In this document: one piece after another, positions 1,841 to 18,837 of the stretch | How the letters are laid out: each line of letters opens with the position of its first letter | Position numbering within the stretch: the first letter of the stretch is position 1 | Assembly (NCBI GenBank): GCA_043744595.1 | Contig: JAYTVK010000060.1 | Coordinates: 1-18,837 of the forward strand | Direction of reading: 5' to 3' | DNA: 18,837 nucleotides | Source of the DNA: Candidatus Lloydbacteria bacterium | GTDB lineage: Bacteria; Patescibacteriota; Minisyncoccia; Phycocordibacterales; UBA6899 | Translations under genes and position numbers: made by a program | The notes under the pieces: model-generated | The model's input: the letters and a program-made list of their open reading frames with translations, nothing else | What the model was told of the DNA's origin: nothing | The model's database searches: none

Positions 1841-3784
1841 TCATGTCTTGCGCGACTTCAGATACCACTCGCACAAGAGCCGCACTTGCCGGCGGGTGTA
1901 GCCGGCGGCGACCATGCGCAGCACGAAGTCATTGTGCTTCTTTGCATCATCTGCGCTTGCCTTGGCATTGAAGGTGATGACCGGGATCATCTCTTCGGTG
2001 TTCGAGAACATCCGCTTCTCGATCACGGAGCGCATCTTCTCATGCGTTGTCCAGTTAGGGTTCTTGCCGCCATTTCCCGCACGAGCACGCAGAACGAAAT
2101 TCACGATCTCGCTGCGGAAGTCCTTCGGGTTCTTGATGTCCGATGGCTTCTCGACCTTCTCGAGCTCGGTATTGAGCTCAGCGAGCTTGAATACTTCTCC
2201 GGTGTCATTGTCCCGGTACTCGCCGTTCTGTATCCAGTAGTCCGCGAACAGCGCGTAGCGATCGAAGATGTCCTGGCCATAGTCGCCGTAGCTTTCGAGG
2301 TAGGCGGTCTGGATCTGCTTGCCGATGAATACCGCGTAGTCCGGCGACAAATGCTCCTTGATGTACGCAAGGTACTTCTTTTCCGTTTCATCATGAAACT
2401 GCTCGCGCACGATCTGCTGCTCGAGCACGTACATCAGATGGATGGGATTCGCCGCGACTTCTTCGGGGTCGAAGTTGTAGACCTTCGAGACGATCTTGAA
2501 TGCGAATCGGGTCGAGACCCCGCTCATCCCTTCGTCCACCCCGGCCTTATCGCGGTACTCTTGAAAGCTGAGTGCTTCTGCACCTGCGTCCTTCACACTC
2601 GCACCGTCGTACACCTTCATCTTGGTGGTGAGGTTACCCTTCTCGGGAGGCTTGATACGGGTCATCATGGCGAACTCGGCGATCATCTTGAGCGTACCGG
2701 GAGCCGGTGTTGTCCTTGCGAGCGCCGAGGAGGCGAGCATCTTTTCATAGATACTCACCTCTTCAGAAAGTCGCAGACAGTACGGCACCTTGACGATGAA
2801 GATGCGGTCAAGGAACGCTTCGTTGTTCTTGTTGTTGCGGAATGTCTTCCATTCACTCTCGTTCGAGTGTGCCATGACGGTACCGTCGAACGGTATCGCC
2901 CCGAAGCCTTCGGTGCCCTTGAAGTTGCCTTCCTGGGTCGCCGTGAGCAAGGGATGCAGCACCTTGATGGGCGCCTTGAACATCTCGACGAACTCGAGAA
3001 GACCCTGATTCGCAAGACACAGGCCGCCCGAGAAGCTGTATGAGTCCGGGTCATCCTGAGCGAAGGTCTCCAGCTTGCGAATGTCGGTCTTGCCGACGAG
3101 TGAGCTGATGTCCTGATTGTTCTCATCACCGGGTTCGGTCTTGGCGACCGCTATCTGACGCGTAACGCTCGGATAGCGCTTGAGCACCACGAACTTGCGG
3201 ATGTCGCCGCCGAATTCGTCGAGCCGCTTGAGCGCCCATGGGCTCATGATGCGCCCAAGGTAACGGCGCGGGATGCCGTACTCATCTTGAAGCACTCGTC
3301 CGTCTTCTTCGGGGTCGAACAATCCGAGCGGCGACTCATTCACCGGTGAAGGGATGAGCTTGTCGCCCTTCTTGATGGCGAGCGCGTAGAACGGCACGCT
3401 CTGCATGAGGTGCTTCAAACGCTCGGCAATAGAACTCTTGCCGCCGCCGACCGGGCCGAGGAGGTAGAGGATCTGCTTCTTCTCTTCGAGCCCCTGCGCC
3501 GCATGACGGAAATACGCCACCACCTGTTCGATCGAATCTTCCATGCCGTAAAACTCCGCGAACGACGGGTAGGTCTTGATGACCTTGCTGCCGAAAATGC
3601 GCGAGAGCCGCGGATCGTTCCGGGTGTCGATGGTGACGGGCTCGCCAATGGCACGAAGCATGCGTTCGGGCGCCGTTGCGTAGGCAAGCGGATCACGCTT
3701 GCACAGCGCGAGGTATTCTTCGAGGGAAAGTTCCTCATCGCGCGTGCGTTCGAAGCGCGAGGCAAAATTACTGATGACGCTCAT
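1841..3784 (-). CDS. prkA: PrkA family serine protein kinase (YeaG/PrkA AAA+ type)
   Basis: 647 aa. The N-terminus is MSVISNFASRFER...LSLEEYL, with Walker A LLGPVGGGKSSIAERLK. Overall length and colinear motifs match the ~630-650 aa PrkA/YeaG proteins. Confidence 0.88.
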   Translation of the reverse strand: MSVISNFASRFERTRDEELSLEEYLALCKRDPLAYATAPERMLRAIGEPVTIDTRNDPRLSRIFGSKVIKTYPSFAEFYGMEDSIEQVVAYFRHAAQGLEEKKQILYLLGPVGGGKSSIAERLKHLMQSVPFYALAIKKGDKLIPSPVNESPLGLFDPEEDGRVLQDEYGIPRRYLGRIMSPWALKRLDEFGGDIRKFVVLKRYPSVTRQIAVAKTEPGDENNQDISSLVGKTDIRKLETFAQDDPDSYSFSGGLCLANQGLLEFVEMFKAPIKVLHPLLTATQEGNFKGTEGFGAIPFDGTVMAHSNESEWKTFRNNKNNEAFLDRIFIVKVPYCLRLSEEVSIYEKMLASSALARTTPAPGTLKMIAEFAMMTRIKPPEKGNLTTKMKVYDGASVKDAGAEALSFQEYRDKAGVDEGMSGVSTRFAFKIVSKVYNFDPEEVAANPIHLMYVLEQQIVREQFHDETEKKYLAYIKEHLSPDYAVFIGKQIQTAYLESYGDYGQDIFDRYALFADYWIQNGEYRDNDTGEVFKLAELNTELEKVEKPSDIKNPKDFRSEIVNFVLRARAGNGGKNPNWTTHEKMRSVIEKRMFSNTEEMIPVITFNAKASADDAKKHNDFVLRMVAAGYTRRQVRLLCEWYLKSRKT

Positions 3785-5902: not shown

Positions 5903-5915
5903 ATTTAGATCAAAA

Positions 5916-5992
5916 GGATTTGACCCCTACTGGGTCGGTACACCTTGGTGGTTTCGAAGACGAAACATCACCAAGGTCTTCAAATCCTCTCC
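5916..5992. repeat. Short tRNA-Leu-linked hairpin element (B1)
   Basis: The closing stem GGATTTGA (5916-5923) / TCAAATCC (5980-5987) copies the tRNA-Leu(GAG) T-arm, with TTCAAATCCTCTC matching 13 nt. Inside is a long hairpin: CCTTGGTG-GTTTCG-AAGA-CGAAAC-AT-CACCAAGG. Confidence 0.5.
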
Positions 5993-6007
5993 GCAAGCCA
6001 TGCAGAT

Positions 6008-6125
6008 GGGAGGATTAGGTCACAGATAATTTTCTCGCCGTCGCTCAAAAATTTCTGCGACCCCGACTCGCCGTTTCGTCTGCTGACGAAACATAGACTC
6101 CGTCTTTCAAATCCTCTCTTGGGCA
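6008..6125. repeat. tRNA-linked structured element, copy B2 (possible ncRNA or miniature mobile element)
   Basis: It is colinear over 101 nt with 10132-10232. The first 54 nt from GGTCACAGATAATTTTCTC have only 5 mismatches. The hairpin at 6073-6092 has the same loop but a swapped stem. It ends in a 20/20 inverted copy of the tRNA-Leu(GAG) 3' end (6106-6125). Confidence 0.6.
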
Positions 6126-6127
6126 AG

Positions 6128-6167
6128 AAAATAAGCGTTGAGACATTCTGTCTCAACGCTTATTTTC
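6128..6167. terminator. Bidirectional terminator hairpin downstream of tRNA-Leu(GAG)
   Basis: Perfect 14-bp stem ATAAGCGTTGAGAC / GTCTCAACGCTTAT, flanked by AAA and TTTT. Confidence 0.7.
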
Positions 6168-6172
6168 TATTG

Positions 6173-6256
6173 TGCCCAAGAGAGGATTTGAACCTCCATG
6201 CCCTTGCGGGCGCTACCACCTCAAGGTAGTGCGTCTACCAATTTCGCCACCTGGGC
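6173..6256 (-). tRNA. tRNA-Leu (anticodon GAG), class II
   Basis: The reverse complement is GCCCAGG acceptor, GGCGAAATTGGTAGACGC D arm, anticodon stem CTACC/GGTAG with loop TTGAGGT, a long variable arm, T arm GGAGG-TTCAAAT-CCTCT, then CTTGGGC + A. Confidence 0.88.
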
Positions 6257-9802: not shown

Positions 9803-10086
9803 TGCTGTTTACTGTAGCGTATCGAAAAATCCTCGTATACACCACGCGCTTCTCCCCACTCCAGGGAGACACTTTCTACGTGAGCAAGCAGGGAGCCTTT
9901 ACGGAGAAGTTCGAGATATGCACTAAGCTGACCATCTTCTCCTTCCGCAACCACGCTGACTGAGCCGTCTTCTTGGTTCATGACATAACCAGTGATACCG
10001 AGCTTGCGCGCGTTTCTTGTGGCGAAATCTCTGTACATCACCATCTGTACCCGCCCGATCACTTTCGCCTCCAATCTCTTTTTCAT
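9799..10086 (-). CDS. acyP: Acylphosphatase
   Basis: 95 aa. The V.G.VQ.V.YR motif (VIGRVQMVMYRDFATRNARKLGITGYV.N..DGSV) matches. A 4-bp ATGA overlap with the downstream amine oxidase gene suggests an operon. Confidence 0.85.
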   Translation of the reverse strand: MKKRLEAKVIGRVQMVMYRDFATRNARKLGITGYVMNQEDGSVSVVAEGEDGQLSAYLELLRKGSLLAHVESVSLEWGEARGVYEDFSIRYSKQQ

Positions 10087-10118
10087 GGTTTTATTTAATC
10101 ACGGGCAAGAATTGGAGT

Positions 10119-10232
10119 CGATGAGGGATTCGGTCACAGATAATTTTCTCACCGTCGTTCGAAAATTTCCGCGACCCCGTCTCGCAGCGAAATCTGCTGA
10201 TTTCGCATTTGCTCCGACTTTCGAATCCCTCA
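10119..10232. repeat. tRNA-linked structured element, copy C (possible ncRNA, leader or miniature mobile element)
   Basis: The arms CGATGAGGGATTCG (10119-10132) and CGAATCCCTCA (10222-10232) are complementary, and both derive from the tRNA-Val T-arm/acceptor. The core is colinear with 6018-6118. The hairpin at 10187-10206 is GCGAAATCTGCTGATTTCGC. The element lies between tRNA-Val and the acyP start, on the same transcription direction. Confidence 0.6.
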
Positions 10233-10268
10233 CGGAAGTGCTGCAGAGCACTTCCTGTCGCTTACAAT

Positions 10269-10292
10269 AAAACCGCCCAATGGGCGGTTTTA
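10269..10292. terminator. Bidirectional terminator hairpin downstream of tRNA-Val
   Basis: AAAA-CCGCCC-AAT-GGGCGG-TTTT. Confidence 0.7.
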
Positions 10293-10294
10293 TC

Positions 10295-10370
10295 TGGTGC
10301 GCGATGAGGGATTCGAACCCCCGACCTTCGCTGTGTAAAAGCGCTGCTCTACCAACTGAGCTAATCGCGC
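10295..10370 (-). tRNA. tRNA-Val (anticodon TAC), CCA encoded
   Basis: The reverse complement is GCGCGAT-TA-GCTC-AGTTGGTA-GAGC-A-GCGCT-TTTACAC-AGCGA-AGGTC-GGGGG-TTCGAAT-CCCTC-ATCGCGC-A-CCA. Confidence 0.88.
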
Positions 10371-10610
10371 AAAGTTCCCTTTACTTTGCCTGTGGTCGCA
10401 ACCATCTCTTTCCTACTGTTATCTACCAAGACACCTAATCGCGCAAAGTTCCCTTTACTTTGCCTGTGGTCGCAACCATCTCTTTCCTACTGTTATCTAC
10501 CAAGACACCTAATCACTCAAAGTTCTCTTTACCTTGCCTGTAATCCCAACTATCTGCTCCTGCTGTTATTTACCAAGACAGCTAATCGCGCAAAGTTTCC
10601 CTTACCTTCT
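10361..10610. repeat. 74-bp tandem repeat (~3.4 units) of the tRNA-Val 5' end plus upstream region
   Basis: CTAATCGCGCA recurs at 10361 (inside the tRNA), 10435, 10509 and 10582. Units 1 and 2 are identical, unit 3 is diverged, and unit 4 is partial. Each unit carries a mimic of the tRNA's first ~24 nt (GCGCGATTAG-GTGTC-TTGGTAGA). Confidence 0.85.
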
Positions 10611-10704
10611 ACTCAAAAACTTACGACTCCTGAACAATAAAACATTTCATCGACATATGCAATTATTTGAGATAATGTAACGATATTCAGTCGAGATGAG
10701 AAAT

Positions 10705-10736
10705 GTCCCCGTAGTCGAGTGGATAGAACAAGAACC
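10705..10736 (+). pseudogene. Truncated 5'-half copy of tRNA-Arg(TCT)
   Basis: GTCCCCGTAGTCGAGTGGATAGAACAAGAACC matches the first 32 nt of the intact tRNA (10789-10820) at 29 of 32 positions. Similarity stops at the anticodon loop. The offset is 84 bp. Confidence 0.75.
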
Positions 10737-10788
10737 ATGAAGCCCGATAATAGCAACATGGGTGTGCGTACGAAGAAACAGAATACAT

Positions 10789-10860
10789 GTCCCCGTAGTT
10801 CAATGGATAGAACAAGAACCTTCTAAGTTCTGGATCTAGGTTCGATTCCTAGCGGGGGCA
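10789..10860 (+). tRNA. tRNA-Arg (anticodon TCT)
   Basis: GTCCCCG-TA-GTTC-AATGGATA-GAAC-A-AGAAC-CTTCTAA-GTTCT-GGAT-CTAGG-TTCGATT-CCTAG-CGGGGGC-A. Confidence 0.88.
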
Positions 10861-10871
10861 CAAACGGATAA

Positions 10872-10900
10872 GAAAAGCACCCTGCGGTGCTTTTCTCGTT
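10872..10900 (+). terminator. Intrinsic terminator after tRNA-Arg(TCT)
   Basis: AAAAGCACC-CTGC-GGTGCTTTT followed by CTCGTTTT. Confidence 0.7.
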
Positions 10901-10904
10901 TTGT

Positions 10905-11012
10905 GCGGGCGCAAAGCATATTGCGAGCTTCGAGCGATGCTGCGCCGGGGTCGCGAACACTTAGGTTTTTAGTAGGCTTTGCGCTAAAAAACTTAGTGAT
11001 TCGTGACCAAAC
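10905..11012. repeat. Possible divergent third copy (D) of the tRNA-linked element, in the same orientation relative to its tRNA
   Basis: The reverse complement carries the two anchor motifs GGTCAC and GCGACCCCG, separated by a long A/T-run hairpin (CACTAAGTTTTT / AAAAACCTAAGTG). A second hairpin follows (GGCGCA-GCAT...ATGC-TTTGCGCC). Outside the anchors only the architecture is shared with B2 and C, not the sequence. Confidence 0.35.
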
Positions 11013-11023
11013 CCCTTACCTCC

Positions 11024-14536: not shown

Positions 14537-14559
14537 AGTGCGGAGGAGGTGAGATTCGA
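14537..14559 (-). repeat. Direct 23-bp copy of the tRNA-Ser 3' end (att-like)
   Basis: AGTGCGGAGGAGGTGAGATTCGA at 14537-14559 is identical to 14578-14600 (T-loop to 3' trailer of tRNA-Ser). The two copies are separated by 18 bp. Confidence 0.85.
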
Positions 14560-14581
14560 GCGGTAATAATTTGTTTCAGTG

Positions 14582-14668
14582 CGGAGGAGGTGAGATTCGA
14601 ACTCACGGTCCACTTTCATGGACGACAGTTTTCAAGACTGTTGCCTTCAACCGCTCAGCCACTCCTCC
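14582..14668 (-). tRNA. tRNA-Ser (anticodon TGA), class II
   Basis: The reverse complement is GGAGGAG-TG-GCTG-AGCGGTTGAA-GGC-A-ACAGT-CTTGAAA-ACTGT, then a long variable arm CGTCCATGAAAGTGGACC, then GTGAG-TTCGAAT-CTCAC-CTCCTCC-G. Confidence 0.88.
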
Positions 14669-14814
14669 GCACTGGAACAAATTTTCAATATAACTCACGT
14701 TTCCCTACAGGAACTGTACACCTTTGGGTTATTTTACCACACGTTGTTTGTAAAATTCCTCAAAAGGTCTTGCGGCTTGGCCCCATCAGAATGGGTTCCC
14801 TTATACCATGCCTC

Positions 14815-14877
14815 ACACTTTCATGGACGAAATTTTTCAAGACTGTTGCCTTCAACCGCTCAGCCCCTCTTTTGCAC
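14815..14877 (-). pseudogene. Degenerate 5' fragment of tRNA-Ser (no T arm)
   Basis: 63 bp are colinear with 14611-14673, with about 6 mismatches. These include disruption of the anticodon stem (ACTGT to AATTT) and of the acceptor. No T arm follows. The offset is 204 bp. Confidence 0.75.
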
Positions 14878-14905
14878 TATGGTTTACTTAGGAAAAATTA
14901 GCATT

Positions 14906-17201: not shown

Positions 17202-17288
17202 CCACTGATTTCCCCCCATTTTTCCAAACGAATTCAGAATTTTTGGCGCGCTTGCGCGCACTAATTTTTCGCCGAGGAGGAGGTTCGA
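17202..17288. repeat. Left copy of a perfect inverted repeat of at least 87 bp (IR-L)
   Basis: I reverse-complemented 18751-18837 by hand and it is identical to 17202-17288 at 87 of 87 positions. It contains an internal palindrome, GCGCGC-TT-GCGCGC, and a GAATTC site. A 9-bp-stem hairpin (GGGACGCGC-GAA-GCGCGTCCC, 17183-17203) abuts its outer end. Confidence 0.95.
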
Positions 17289-17358: not shown

Positions 17359-18837
17359 ATGGAAAATAAAAAATTCTTTTTGTATGCTCGCAAGAGTACC
17401 GATGTCGAGGATAAGCAAGTTTTGAGTATCGAGGCACAGCTTCAAGAATTGCGAGACTATGCCAAGAGAGAAAATCTGAACATCGCCCTTGAATTTATAG
17501 AAAAACAATCTGCTAAAATTCCAGGTCGTCCAGTGTTTAATGAGATGATGAAGAAAATTGAAAAGGGCGATGCAGATTCTATCCTCTCTTGGCATCCGGA
17601 TCGTCTCGCAAGAAATAGTATTGACGGTGGGAATATTATTTACCTCCTCGACACAGGGAAACTTGCGAGCCTCAAGTTTCCTACTTTTTGGTGTGATTCC
17701 ACATCACAAGGCAAATTCATGTTAAACATGGCTTTCGGGCAAAGCAAATACTATGTGGATTCTCTTTCCGAGAACACGAAGCGTGGACTTCGCCAAAAAG
17801 TTCGTAACGGAGATTATCCAACGCTTGCCCCTGTGGGATATATTAACGACTCCCGAACAAAAACTGTTGTTGTTGATAGAAAGAAAGCGAGAATTATCAG
17901 GCAAGCGTTTGAGTTCTATGTAAAAGGCGGTAATAGACTGGAAGATGTCTCAAACTTTTTGGCGAAGCACAATATATTTTCAAAAACCGGAAAGAGAATC
18001 CACAAATCCCGCGCGACTTCTATACTTTCCAATCCTTTTTACACTGGACTATTTAGATATGGTGGAGAATTGCACGAAGGAAAGTACGAGCCGATCATTT
18101 CAAAGAAACTTTTTGACCAAGCGCAGGAAATGTTGAAACTTCGCGGTAAGCCCGACAGAAAGCCTCTAAACGACCCCCAACCTTTCTGTGGGCTCATTTC
18201 CTGCGCTTCATGCGGAATGATGATAACTGGCGAATACAAGGCTAAGAAGCAACAGAATGGTAATACTCACGAGTATGTCTATTATCACTGCACAAAGAAG
18301 AACAAAATGGTAAAGTGTGAAGAACCTTGTATTCGACAGGAAGAATTGAATCGCCAGTTATCATCCGAAATACAAAAAGTTTCTTTGCCCAAAGACTGGG
18401 CGGAGGAACTAAATCGCATGGCGTTAGAGGAACACAAAACATCCGCCCAGTCTTTAACTGCTTGTGTGAAAGAGAAGCAAGAGAAGATTTCTACAATTTC
18501 AATTAGACTGGAGCGACTTCTCAATGGTTATCTTGATCAAGATATTGAAAAGGAAATTTATCGTGCTGAAAAAGGAAAATTGCTTTTACAAAAGAAGTCG
18601 CTCGAAGAAGAAATCTACAATCTTTCACACAAGCAGAATGATTGGCTCGAACCTTTCCAAAACTGGCTAGAAGTCGCACAGAATATAGACAAAATCGCTT
18701 CTGATTCAGACTTTTTTGCTAAAAAGGTCTGTGCCAAAGAAATCTTTGGCTCGAACCTCCTCCTCGGCGAAAAATTAGTGCGCGCAAGCGCGCCAAAAAT
18801 TCTGAATTCGTTTGGAAAAATGGGGGGAAATCAGTGG
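17359..18837 (+). CDS. Large serine recombinase (resolvase/invertase catalytic domain + recombinase domain + zinc ribbon + coiled-coil), 3'-open at window end
   Basis: My own translation gives 493 codons without a stop, to the last base of the window, so the ORF is absent from the track. There is an alternative in-frame ATG at 17347. It begins MENKKFFLYARKSTDVEDKQVLSIEAQ (catalytic Ser) and continues ...LSWHPDRLARN...GKFMLNMAFGQSKYYVDSLSENTKRGL. The recombinase domain contains LSNPFYTGLFRYGG. The Cys cluster is CGLISCASCG...YYHCTKK...CEEPC. A coiled-coil tail follows. Confidence 0.88.
   Translation, partial: MENKKFFLYARKSTDVEDKQVLSIEAQLQELRDYAKRENLNIALEFIEKQSAKIPGRPVFNEMMKKIEKGDADSILSWHPDRLARNSIDGGNIIYLLDTGKLASLKFPTFWCDSTSQGKFMLNMAFGQSKYYVDSLSENTKRGLRQKVRNGDYPTLAPVGYINDSRTKTVVVDRKKARIIRQAFEFYVKGGNRLEDVSNFLAKHNIFSKTGKRIHKSRATSILSNPFYTGLFRYGGELHEGKYEPIISKKLFDQAQEMLKLRGKPDRKPLNDPQPFCGLISCASCGMMITGEYKAKKQQNGNTHEYVYYHCTKKNKMVKCEEPCIRQEELNRQLSSEIQKVSLPKDWAEELNRMALEEHKTSAQSLTACVKEKQEKISTISIRLERLLNGYLDQDIEKEIYRAEKGKLLLQKKSLEEEIYNLSHKQNDWLEPFQNWLEVAQNIDKIASDSDFFAKKVCAKEIFGSNLLLGEKLVRASAPKILNSFGKMGGNQW
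18751..18837. repeat. Right copy of the inverted repeat of at least 87 bp (IR-R), inside the recombinase ORF and truncated by the window end
   Basis: It is the reverse complement of 17202-17288. It encodes the recombinase residues SNLLLGEKLVRASAPKILNSFGKMGGNQW. Confidence 0.95.

Follow-up and report, generated by a model that had tools for sequence, protein, structure and literature searches.

What kind of sequence is the conserved stretch of about 100 nt that lies beside tRNA-Leu-GAG, and again beside tRNA-Val-TAC, in this DNA of Candidatus Lloydbacteria? The genomes of CPR bacteria (Patescibacteria) are very small and are regarded as containing little mobile DNA. In the window (the whole stretch analyzed, 18,837 nt), positions 6018–6118 (copy A) and 10132–10232 (copy B) align base for base, without gaps and with 5 differences within the first 54 nt, as the initial annotation had described; they belong to a 103-nt repeat at 79% identity. 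In the middle hairpin, the apex TCTGCTGA is common to both copies, with the stems GTTTCG/CGAAAC in one and GCGAAA/TTTCGC in the other. Five of the six pairs are changed on both sides, and these compensatory swaps can be read from the sequence itself. A 19-mer common to A and B occurs twice in the window, with 0.01 occurrences expected (two matches were obtained in none of 200 shuffles).

The features of the window are given below, with X the 3′ end of the target gene, X′ its inverted copy, t–t′ the terminator palindrome, and R1 a covariance model of the family.

6172–6256, minus strand: tRNA-Leu-GAG, target gene of array A (ARAGORN, Rfam tRNA match)
6173–6192: sequence X of array A, the last 20 nt of tRNA-Leu-GAG
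6126–6168: trailer/terminator hairpin t–t′ of array A, between the tRNA and X′; a perfect 20+20-nt palindrome with a 3-nt loop
6106–6125, minus strand: X′(A), perfect complement of the last 20 nt of tRNA-Leu-GAG (6173–6192)
6018–6105, minus strand: core (body) of copy A (R1 match of 118.6 bits; fold; covariation)
6008–6017, minus strand: distal arm X(A), TAATCCTCCC in the tRNA-sense orientation; pairs with X′ and closes the core
5915–5998, minus strand: type-2 element, of a second body family (nhmmer; no match with R1)
10295–10370, minus strand: tRNA-Val-TAC, target gene of copy B (ARAGORN, Rfam)
10233–10294, minus strand: tRNA-Val trailer, with a terminator hairpin (10269–10291) and a second hairpin (10234–10255), read from the sequence
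10220–10232, minus strand: X′(B), complement of TTCGAATCCCTCA of tRNA-Val, 13 nt
10133–10219, minus strand: core of copy B (R1 match of 119.8 bits)
10119–10132, minus strand: distal X(B), CGAATCCCTCATCG, a 14-nt direct repeat of the tRNA-Val 3′ part at 10302–10315
10789–10861, plus strand: tRNA-Arg-TCT, target gene of copy C (ARAGORN, Rfam)
10881–11020, plus strand: copy C, a divergent type-1 member (R1 match of 30.6 bits, E = 8e-9)

In copy A, X–t–t′–X′ is predicted to fold as a single hairpin of ~40 bp. X′(A) spans the complement of the T-loop, the T-stem 3′ strand, the acceptor 3′ strand, and the discriminator of tRNA-Leu-GAG. It is templated on the 3′ strand of the tRNA (GCCCAAG vs. GCCCAGG at the tRNA 5′ end); a derivation of X′ from the 5′ strands of acceptor and T-stem was rejected, since X′ exactly complements the 3′ strand where the tRNA has G·U pairs. 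The core, in the tRNA-sense orientation, runs from GAAAG through a 3-bp helix and a bulged variable hairpin (with an AGCA tetraloop) to a long conserved hairpin ending in CUGUGACC. The distal arm X(A) is a degenerate copy of the T-loop and of the T-stem 3′ part.

The neighboring element at 5915–5998 had been taken for a shorter relative. It belongs instead to the second body family (type-2), which follows the same arm logic: X′ (5977–5998) is the complement of a tRNA 3′ end including CCA, and is followed by a core of ~55 nt and by X (TCAAATCCT). Type-2 homologs were found with nhmmer in three loci (L042, L041, and L037), each downstream from a tRNA. A third small element was seen in addition to the two body families.

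In copy B, the second hairpin of the trailer separates the acceptor-complement from the T-arm-complement part of X′(B), a split arrangement that recurs in L042 and L029. The distal repeat ends after 14 nt and the old tRNA end is not continued; acyP begins 34 nt downstream, and it is copy B, not copy C as first proposed, that forms its leader. The divergent candidate near tRNA-Arg-TCT is a type-1 member (copy C), with a long hairpin larger by 33 nt and, upstream, the palindrome CACAAAcgg..terminator..cgTTTTGTG (terminator at 10871–10896). Fragments of tRNA are abundant across the window, and other tRNAs of the window carry leader/trailer stems that resemble processing stalks.

Copies A and B are genuine representatives of a family of small non-coding elements in the CPR that is large and has not been described before. 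The 19-mer GGTCACAGATAATTTTCTC matched 37 loci, about 32 of which extend to the whole element, all in Patescibacteria. With R1, 54 copies were collected in 34 sources, a sample that was seeded by one 19-mer and is biased toward one conserved variant. The core, with the ends (G)AAAGACGGAG and CUGUGACC, is very highly conserved in sequence across CPR classes. Against Rfam 15, the whole window gave only tRNAs at E ≤ 1; the segment 5900–6140 gave two sub-threshold snoRNA chance matches at E ≤ 10, and six related loci gave only tRNA and tmRNA. Full-text literature searching turned up nothing comparable, in line with the earlier remark that no known RNA family could be recognized.

The genes around the copies are heterogeneous housekeeping genes on either strand, and a cis-regulator of the downstream gene was rejected on this ground. 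All-versus-all clustering of the ORFs in 36 loci yielded housekeeping synteny groups only, with no recurrent neighbor protein, and neither a recombinase gene nor one for Rep or RT was found in or adjoining any copy (~8 kb per locus). The ORFs that overlap the copies in the window (5945–6229 and 9992–10270) have no Pfam match and their frames differ between copies; a peptide gene was rejected, in agreement with the first reading. A T-box, a tRNA-like gene, and a piece of tmRNA were likewise rejected (ARAGORN and Rfam were negative). The hammerhead-like CUGCUGA is in fact the tip of a hairpin (two base pairs and the AGCA tetraloop) and not a junction.

The initial annotation saw in the swapped stem of the middle hairpin a sign of selection, and the data support selection acting on base pairing in single-stranded nucleic acid. 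In an alignment (A4) that had been fitted to the structure of the model, 93.7% of the cells are paired, vs. 76.9% in shuffles and 33%–46% with the partners slid; the covariation score is 0.473 vs. 0.174 in shuffles, and none of 500 shuffles attained the observed score. Double changes occur in 23 of 27 pairs, and the support grows as more homologs are aligned. All 29 copies tested form the variable hairpin, with stems that differ. On the sense strand, the pairs include 124 G·U against 19 A·C. By this ratio, the folding strand is the tRNA-sense strand, which for A and B is the minus strand and not the plus strand on which they were first described. One G·U pair is retained in 47 of 53 copies. 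For copy A, the predicted folding energy is −47.6 kcal/mol on the sense strand (z = −4.9) and −38.4 on the antisense strand (z = −2.8).

The modeled core has the shape of a Y on the sense strand, made of the 3-bp helix, the bulged variable hairpin with its AGCA tetraloop, and the long hairpin. The latter contains two conserved G·U (or G·T) pairs and a bulged A. The core is closed by the X′/X stem, which reproduces the target duplex. The pairing GTCG(C/T)...GCGAC proposed earlier is not supported; at the tip of the long hairpin (GGTCGCGGAAATTTTC...GAAAATTATCTGTGACC, tRNA-sense), the C/T difference covaries with a G/A seven bases upstream.

Conserved G·U pairs, GA/AG tandems, and tetraloops typify functional RNA, and a role as RNA is therefore possible. 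The copies could form a small RNA or a cis-acting module co-transcribed with the tRNA (for processing, as terminator or insulator, or as mimic of the tRNA end), with X′/X as a processing stalk, that would have spread by duplication together with tRNA 3′ ends and without dedicated recombination. Such a module would suit the sense-strand fold with its G·U pairs, tetraloops, and tandem G·A pairs, the very high conservation across CPR classes, the constant position of the copies, co-oriented and downstream from a highly transcribed gene, and the processing-stalk-like stems at other tRNAs of the window. However, an intrinsic-terminator-like hairpin usually separates the tRNA from the element, no promoter was predicted for copies B and C, and the downstream genes have no common theme. 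We consider this alternative rather improbable, also in view of several features of the target sites that it leaves unexplained.

A tRNA gene on the same strand lies upstream of 41 of the 54 copies (at least 14 isotypes), mostly 12–60 nt away, the remainder being in arrays. Further copies do exist, and they are located 3′ of tRNA genes, as had been surmised, with an orientation relative to the tRNA that is constant. The target range is broader than first noted: tmRNA genes precede two copies and the last codons of topA host three, and the spread is both Patescibacteria-wide and Patescibacteria-specific. One copy (L009) retains T-loop-type arms with no tRNA nearby.

In the order of the sense strand, the integrated unit comprises X (the gene 3′ end), the terminator palindrome, X′, the core of ~100 nt, and a direct repeat of X, after which the old flank resumes. 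Because of this layout (X–t–t′–X′–core–X), the element supplies a replacement 3′ end and a terminator for the interrupted gene. X starts either at the T-loop position C56 or at the extreme 3′ end (CACAAA). With the repeats aligned from C56, the exact match of the arms averages 9.9 and 9.0 nt with their own tRNA vs. 5.7 and 4.9 nt with unrelated tRNAs; since C56 is also the invariant last base of the core, the repeat proper starts at C56 or R57. The arms derive from the adjacent tRNA, as first suspected, and the 20-nt inverted copy in A is perfect. Direct repeats of tRNA ends reach 26 nt and inverted repeats 21 nt. The X′/X stem equals the tRNA 3′ part exactly over 19 nt in L021 and over 11 nt in copy B. 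The att-like duplication seen at tRNA-Val is one case among several: direct repeats of 13–26 nt flank copy B and the copies in L007, L021, L024, L027, L030, and L042, and the tRNAs at these repeat-flanked copies are intact (ARAGORN).

In topA (L032, L006, and L023), both copies of the C-terminus encode TIPERCSDK.CPN.NP.K, and the two copies, over a duplicated stretch of ~66 nt, differ by many synonymous changes. Since the amino acids are the same and the synonymous differences many, the proximal topA end comes from another lineage. Tandem arrays, in which each unit has its own X, occur in L027, L004, L018, and L042. Sites without the element are found in relatives, the nearest of which have 52%–68% identity in amine oxidase (the protein used to find them): the spacer between tRNA-Cys and tRNA-Leu-TAA is 35 nt in L005 and 21 nt in L034 vs. 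193 nt with the element in L011. In L041, a syntenic relative, the tRNAs are the same and R1 has no match; the site there may hold a decayed remnant. Exact-protein look-ups with the window proteins returned the same strain or nothing, hence no empty site within the population, and a metagenome scan that started from the amine oxidase gave a single locus, which was irrelevant.

An RNA module would account neither for the insertion in topA, where the gene end is foreign and has diverged at synonymous sites, nor for direct repeats as long as 26 nt, for tandem arrays and empty sites, or for a second body family with the same arms. Our preferred explanation, with a probability of roughly 0.55, is that A, B, and C are miniature non-coding, non-autonomous, site-specific integrative elements of Patescibacteria. 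By analogy with integron attC sites and the CTX phage, they probably recombine as a folded single strand.

Integrative elements of tRNA and tmRNA genes, with their CIMEs, satellites, and tycheposon remnants, share with these copies the site-specific insertion in the tRNA/tmRNA 3′ part, the replacement 3′ end that is carried, the direct repeats of gene ends, and the piling up of fragments and arrays at the locus. The elements here are 10 to 100 times smaller and non-coding, and they hold an inverted copy of the att core and a covarying single-strand fold. They could still be CIME-like deletion remnants of double-strand integrative elements (phages or ICEs with a tyrosine integrase) at tRNA, tmRNA, and topA genes, the core being a leftover P-arm of attP. 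The repeated target 3′ end, the replacement gene end, the choice of tRNA and tmRNA, and the richness of the window in tRNA fragments would all follow. Yet all 54 copies are miniature, and in none does an integrase or any cargo separate X from the core. Pair covariation and strand-specific G·U pairs are unexpected for a double-stranded arm site, and X′, an inverted core-site copy ~100 nt from X, has no role in an attP of the lambda type. Moreover, two conserved 19–21-mers have no exact match among 2.9 million viral contigs; a phage-borne origin is without support, with diverged copies as the case where it is possible. Deletion remnants are in our judgment unlikely.

The MITE-like repeats (ERIC/IRU, REP/BIME, RUP, Correia, and others) are likewise non-coding, multi-copy, of ~100–130 nt, intergenic after genes, conserved across genera, and given to nested insertions and mosaic arrays. 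In contrast to the present copies, they have terminal inverted repeats of their own sequence and fixed short target-site duplications or none; they have neither target-gene ends nor target-derived stems and are not tied to tRNA genes. Here, the core ends are not mutual inverted copies, the inverted arms are target sequence and vary between copies, and the duplications are 5–26 nt of a tRNA 3′ end or ~66 nt of diverged topA.

Derivation from a single-strand HUH transposon, as a non-autonomous element (a PATE of the IS200/IS605 type, or REP/RAYT-like), would make the X–t–t′–X′ palindrome and the long core hairpin the left and right subterminal hairpins. Near both ends lie hairpins that are imperfect, with a bulge and mismatches, the insertion is precise and beside a short motif, the folding strand is the one exposed as lagging-strand template for co-oriented genes, and the nested insertions and mosaic arrays resemble BIMEs. 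IS200/IS605 elements, however, neither duplicate nor carry their target, and here the duplication covers 13–26 nt of a tRNA end or ~66 nt of topA; the left "hairpin" varies with the target and is not conserved, and no TnpA or RAYT gene was seen in the loci. An HUH derivative is very unlikely.

How would a gene-free integrative element of this sort insert? We infer a single-stranded circular intermediate and a recombinase of the type that acts on such folded strands, with DNA as a likelier material than RNA. The small circle would fold into a rod with X–t/t′–X′ as stem and the core as a large loop. The conserved core hairpins would be bound by a recombinase whose gene lies elsewhere, and this enzyme would swap one strand between the X′/X stem and the X sequence of the target gene; replication would then fix the insertion. 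The predicted order, L–X–t–t′–X′–core–X–R, is the order observed, and the same topology arises from integron attC × attI recombination and from integration of the CTX phage at dif. This recombinase is hypothetical, because none was found in or next to any copy. For the T-loop-type copies, a switch of tRNA species would need a new X and a new X′, and the model does not account for a perfectly matching X′ (up to 21 nt). Hairpin-capped double-strand-break and telomere-resolvase models were rejected, as they do not reproduce the observed right flank.

The likeness to integron attC sites and ORF-less cassettes lies in a recombination site that acts as a folded single strand, in which inverted arms enclose a middle part, variable or structured, and in strand-specific irregularities (here, the conserved bulged A and the G·U/G·T pairs of the sense-strand fold). 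One-strand exchange in integrons gives [site left]–[cassette content]–[inverse core...core]–[site right], with the newest unit proximal; X–t–t′–X′–core–X and the tandem arrays match this order. In attC, however, the arms hold the conserved R″/R′ boxes (RYYYAAC/GTTRRRY) and the middle varies, whereas the present elements have a conserved middle and arms that copy the target: these arms read ..GGATTCG/CGAATCC.. or TTTGTG/CACAAA, with no GTTRRRY consensus. Further, the target is a tRNA, tmRNA, or topA gene and not attI, the "cassette" is only a gene 3′ end with a terminator, and no recombinase domain (as IntI with attI would imply) was found in the ORFs of the window or of the neighborhoods tested (~8 kb per locus).

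In CTX-phage attP(+) and in IMEX, two inverted target-like sites ~90–100 nt apart fold in single-stranded DNA into a mimic of the chromosomal site, and a recombinase of the host performs a one-strand exchange that replication then completes, the element being without a recombinase of its own. Here the target is not dif (no dif-like sequence was recognized) but a tRNA T-loop or 3′ end, tmRNA, or topA. The loop is a conserved, covarying structure, and the elements are gene-free and of ~170–210 nt, whereas CTX is a phage of 7 kb. The retron msr-msd resembles the elements in its a1/a2 inverted-repeat closing stem, its G-rich junction, its one or two short hairpins and one long hairpin, and its size of 120–200 nt. 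In contrast, the present elements are target-armed, multi-copy, and at tRNA ends, and no RT domain was found in the window or in the neighbors tested. A retroviral-type primer-binding site, or a stop at m1A58, is not supported, since X′ runs through position 58 to T54–C56.

Segments complementary to the target on both sides of a conserved structured scaffold could also suggest RNA guidance, in which the core, once transcribed, would serve as scaffold in the manner of an IS110 bridge RNA or a TnpB omega RNA, with X′ and X pairing as guides with the two target strands. The specificity does follow the arms (T-loop, tRNA end, topA, tmRNA) and the fold is RNA-like. But the complementarity between X′ and X would tie both up in a stem, none of the copies adjoins a gene for IS110, TnpB, or IscB, and there is no Rfam match to the HEARO or IS605-orfB RNA families. 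An RNA-guided module appears highly improbable.

To a further and more tentative proposal we give limited credence. The elements would be gene-free integrative replicators, in which the X′/X stem reproduces the target duplex and the scaffold is read by a recombinase encoded elsewhere. A change of stem would retarget the element, which would account for the target range (T-loop of any tRNA, tRNA 3′ end, tmRNA, and topA). Single-stranded circles of ~170–210 nt would move between CPR genomes, possibly via natural competence, and the terminator hairpin would prime fold-back synthesis of an X′ that matches the new target.

The family is present in many CPR classes, and at tRNA loci in every carrier genome sampled; its members appear to move between lineages without encoding any protein. 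They generate tRNA fragments and put structured sequence into the leaders of downstream operons, acyP behind copy B being an example. They also break short-read assemblies: two Logan contigs of SRR23617271, the sample matching the window, end inside or beside such elements. A covariance model for these elements merits a place in annotation pipelines. If the folded-strand mechanism is true, single-strand recombination of the integron/CTX style would reach down to integrative units smaller than any other known. A choice of integration site that is encoded in nucleic acid and retargetable would also be suggested, a matter of importance for how recombination systems evolve and possibly for genome engineering.

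The window carries seven tRNA genes amid housekeeping genes (PrkA, a Mu Gam-like protein, L19, RluA, UppS, amine oxidase, AcyP, PilM, and RuvX). Copies A (6018-6118, by tRNA-Leu-GAG) and B (10132-10232, by tRNA-Val) align without gaps, as the initial annotation had it; in our comparison, the similarity covers 103 nt at 79% identity. Within the first 54 nt, the count of 5 differing positions is confirmed, and the hairpin that follows keeps its apex with 5 of 6 stem pairs swapped on both sides. A 19-mer common to both, GGTCACAGATAATTTTCTC, occurs 2 times in the window (0.01 expected). The conserved half of copy A is nearer to a copy in a different genome (L036) than to copy B. The flanks of A and B derive, as proposed, from the adjacent tRNAs, as an inverted tRNA-Leu-GAG end and a repeated part of tRNA-Val. 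Below, X stands for the 3′ end of the target gene, X′ for its complement, t and t′ for the halves of the trailer/terminator palindrome, and core for the ~100-nt conserved body; copies A, B, and C are of type 1.

6106-6125, inverted copy of the tRNA-Leu-GAG 3′ end (20 nt, perfect)
6126-6168, palindrome running on from that inverted end (20+20 nt, perfect)
10119-10132, att-like repeat at copy B, duplicating 14 nt of the tRNA-Val 3′ part
10881-11020 (+), copy C, by tRNA-Arg-TCT, the divergent candidate, now a family member by covariance model (30.6 bits, E about 1e-8)
5915-5998, the supposed shorter relative, which shares the X′-core-X design but belongs to a second body family (type 2)

The 19-mer matched 37 loci in a scan of 185,579 species genomes. 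At five of these (Fibrobacterota, Burkholderiales, Dyadobacter, Neisseria) there is no likeness outside the 19-mer; the whole element is present at the other 32, all 32 in Patescibacteria (Saccharibacteria, Paceibacterota/Parcubacteria, Nomura-, Woese-, Kaiser-, Yonath-, Lloyd- and Vogelbacteria). A covariance model trained on 29 copies yields 54 copies from 34 sources, many of them diverged and without the 19-mer. The family is large and restricted to Patescibacteria. The element has no match in Rfam 15, and no description was found in Rfam or the searchable literature, so that the statement that it belongs to no known family holds.

In the tRNA sense, the consensus reads X′ - GAAAG - N - CGGAG - (bulged hairpin) - CGAG - N′ - CGGGG - UCGCGGAAAUUUUCGAGCGACGGCGAGAAAAUUAUCUGUGACC - X, with N/N′ covarying (AU 15, GC 14, CG 13, UA 6). 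The variable hairpin can be folded in 29 of the 29 copies tested, with stems that are essentially unrelated, a 3-nt 5′ bulge, and an apex of two conserved pairs with an AGCA-type tetraloop. In the 54-copy alignment, 93.7% of cells are paired (76.9% in shuffles, 33-46% with slid partners), and double-sided changes occur in 23 of 27 pairs. The covariation score (0.473 vs. 0.174 in shuffles) is reached by none of 500 shuffles, which bears out selection on base pairing; the 29-copy MAFFT alignment, made without fitting to the model, agrees with this. The wobble pairs (124 G.U vs. 19 A.C on the tRNA-sense strand) decide that this is the strand that folds; one G.U pair is conserved in 47 of 53 copies. 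The folding energy of copy A is −47.6 kcal/mol (z −4.9) in the sense strand vs. −38.4 (z −2.8) in the other. Because of the covariation and strand results, the suggested GTCG(C/T)/GCGAC hairpin is superseded by one long hairpin, in which the C/T change is a compensated G-C to A-U swap in the tip pair. Such an RNA-like fold could also be explained by a functional RNA co-transcribed with the tRNA, a reading that we consider rather unlikely since it leaves unexplained the imported topA gene ends, the arrays, and the empty sites described below.

The position 3′ of tRNA genes is confirmed for 41 of the 54 copies, which lie downstream from a same-strand tRNA (at least 14 isotypes), mostly at 12-60 nt and otherwise farther out, in tRNA-element-element arrays. 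Among the other copies are:

L013 and L033, following tmRNA genes
L006, L023, and L032, inserted at the last codons of topA
L009, with no tRNA close by but with T-loop-type arms kept

One type-1 element (1071-1191 in L003, a Saccharibacteria MAG) lies directly downstream from a tRNA call by ARAGORN (1213-1286) whose anticodon, TTA, would read the UAA stop codon.

The 3′ end of the upstream gene is repeated directly in the 3′ arm, X, and as its complement in the 5′ arm, X′. Exact matches of the arms to their own tRNA have means of 9.9 and 9.0 nt, as against 5.7 and 4.9 nt with unrelated tRNAs, and maxima of 21 nt (X′) and 26 nt (X). In one type of arm, X begins at T-loop C56 or R57; in the other, it consists of the final tRNA bases and an A-rich trailer (CACAAA paired with TTTGTG). 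The topA insertion site, GG[C/G]ACAAAAAC, is the motif of this second type. In copy A, X′ has GCCCAAG-AGAGG where the tRNA's own 5′ strands have GCCCAGG and GGAGG, so that X′ is templated on the tRNA 3′ strand. The repeats would be explained if the copies were remnants of larger integrase-bearing elements; the covariation, X′, and the uniform small size would not, and we regard this as improbable. An HUH/IS200-type PATE, for which we see still less chance, would account for the hairpins and strand bias but not for the duplication of target sequence. Least probable of all is a guide resembling bridge RNA, as the arms are self-complementary and there is no adjacent partner gene.

Several observations bear on mobility. 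Each of the three topA insertions has the final 18-25 codons of the gene twice, one set in frame before the element and one after, and both ends encode TIPERCSDK.CPN.NP.K despite many synonymous differences. Judging from these sequences, a gene end that had evolved within a functional topA of another lineage must have come in with the element, because neutral drift of a local duplication would not keep the protein. Site-specific integrative elements bring in gene ends. The syntenic relative L041 shares the tRNA-Val, Arg-TCT, Leu-GAG, Leu-CAG, and Ser genes with the window and has no type-1 copy; behind its tRNA-Leu-CAG there is a type-2 copy, with none at that place in the window. The spacer between tRNA-Cys and tRNA-Leu-TAA measures 35 nt in L005, 21 nt in L034, and 193 nt, with the element, in L011. 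L027 (two identical 159-nt units), L004, L018, and L042 contain arrays, each unit with an X of its own. Small palindromic modules are nested within some copies; one, CACCACAAGAGTACTTCATTTTTCTAA...TTAGAAAAATGAAGTACTCTTGTGGTG, found in type-1 and type-2 elements (L010, L008, L025, L040, and L042, e.g., L042 4470-4560), is a fourth small repeat family. In the window and among the neighboring genes of the copies, we found no ORF in the element, no recurrent neighboring protein, and no recombinase, and two conserved 19-21-mers have zero exact matches in the viral collection.

Other repeats and tRNA fragments occur in the window. Copies B and C flank, in inverted orientation, the divergent tRNA-Val/tRNA-Arg-TCT pair (10295-10861), which is inverted relative to L041 (4815-5027) and L042 (5007-5551); they could have mediated this inversion. 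Directly upstream of tRNA-Val, a 74-nt unit is repeated 3.3 times in tandem (10361-10603). Each unit combines upstream sequence with a copy of the tRNA-Val start, ~11-25 nt long (exact over 11 nt and diverged over ~25 nt; CTAATCGCGCA on the + strand); a diverged fragment of this kind is present in L042. A partial copy of the tRNA-Arg-TCT 5′ part (10703-10736; 34 nt, 91% identity) precedes the real gene by 50 nt, and its L042 equivalent has an extra insertion in the D-loop region. A 63-nt copy of the tRNA-Ser-TGA 5′ part (14816-14878, 90% identity; site 14674-14878, − strand) is separated from the intact gene by ~140 nt homologous to a module nested in the L009 element (GGAACCCATTCTnATGGGGCC...CCGCAAGACCTTTTGAG); this spacer looks like a third small element, replacing the 5′ side of the tRNA gene. 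The tRNA-Ser 3′ end forms an exact 23-nt direct repeat (14537-14559 and 14578-14600, 18 nt apart), without X′ or core and overlapping the predicted start of the RuvX ORF, that may be the remnant of an element deletion. The leaders and trailers of tRNA-Leu-CAG (4062-4085/4147-4170) and tRNA-Ser-TGA (14568-14589/14662-14683) are complementary for ~15 nt past the acceptor stem and look like processing-stalk extensions. A perfect 87-nt inverted repeat (17202-17288 and 18751-18837) surrounds 1.46 kb, with its second arm ending exactly at the window end and no Pfam match for the ORFs inside; it could be an invertible segment, an IS-like segment, or an assembly fold-back artefact. Of two Logan contigs from the same strain, L044 ends 89 nt past the Gam gene, inside the type-2 element by array A, and L038 has its start within tRNA-Val, next to copy B, which fits repeat-induced assembly breaks in short-read data. 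In L040, the closest relative, rplS and tRNA-Leu-GAG have between them an ORF with a faint LAGLIDADG match (2896-3570) that the window lacks.

In integrated form, the parts follow one another as L - X - t - t′ - X′ - core - X - R, which is what an exchange with a single-stranded circle would yield. We infer that a small single-stranded circle (core-X-t-loop-t′-X′) would fold into a rod and swap one strand, within X, with the X of the target gene, the insertion then being fixed by replication. The product would equal in topology that of integron attC x attI recombination and of CTX-phage integration at dif. This mechanism would account for the perfect X-t-t′-X′ palindrome (in copy A, ~40 bp), for the direct repetition of X, for the gene end and terminator that the element carries, and for the arrays. 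It would also account for the strand specificity of the fold and for the conservation of the bulge and the G.T/G.U pairs, features that a protein could recognize. Transcription bubbles also leave the sense strand single-stranded, as do replication forks if the gene is co-oriented with replication. The folded strand is possibly RNA and not DNA. The model leaves the matching X′ unaccounted for upon a move to a different tRNA species; speculatively, fold-back synthesis primed at the target's own terminator hairpin would supply it.

In the way it works, the element has its closest counterparts in the attC cassette and the CTX-type IMEX, but lacks the R boxes and IntI of the former and the dif of the latter. 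It shares its location with tRNA-targeting islands, without their integrase in cis, and has no TIRs with TSD. What the initial annotation had noticed is real, statistically supported, and wider than could be seen there. We rate the element as a non-autonomous, att-flanked integrative element of Patescibacteria, and there is a realistic chance that its mechanism is new.
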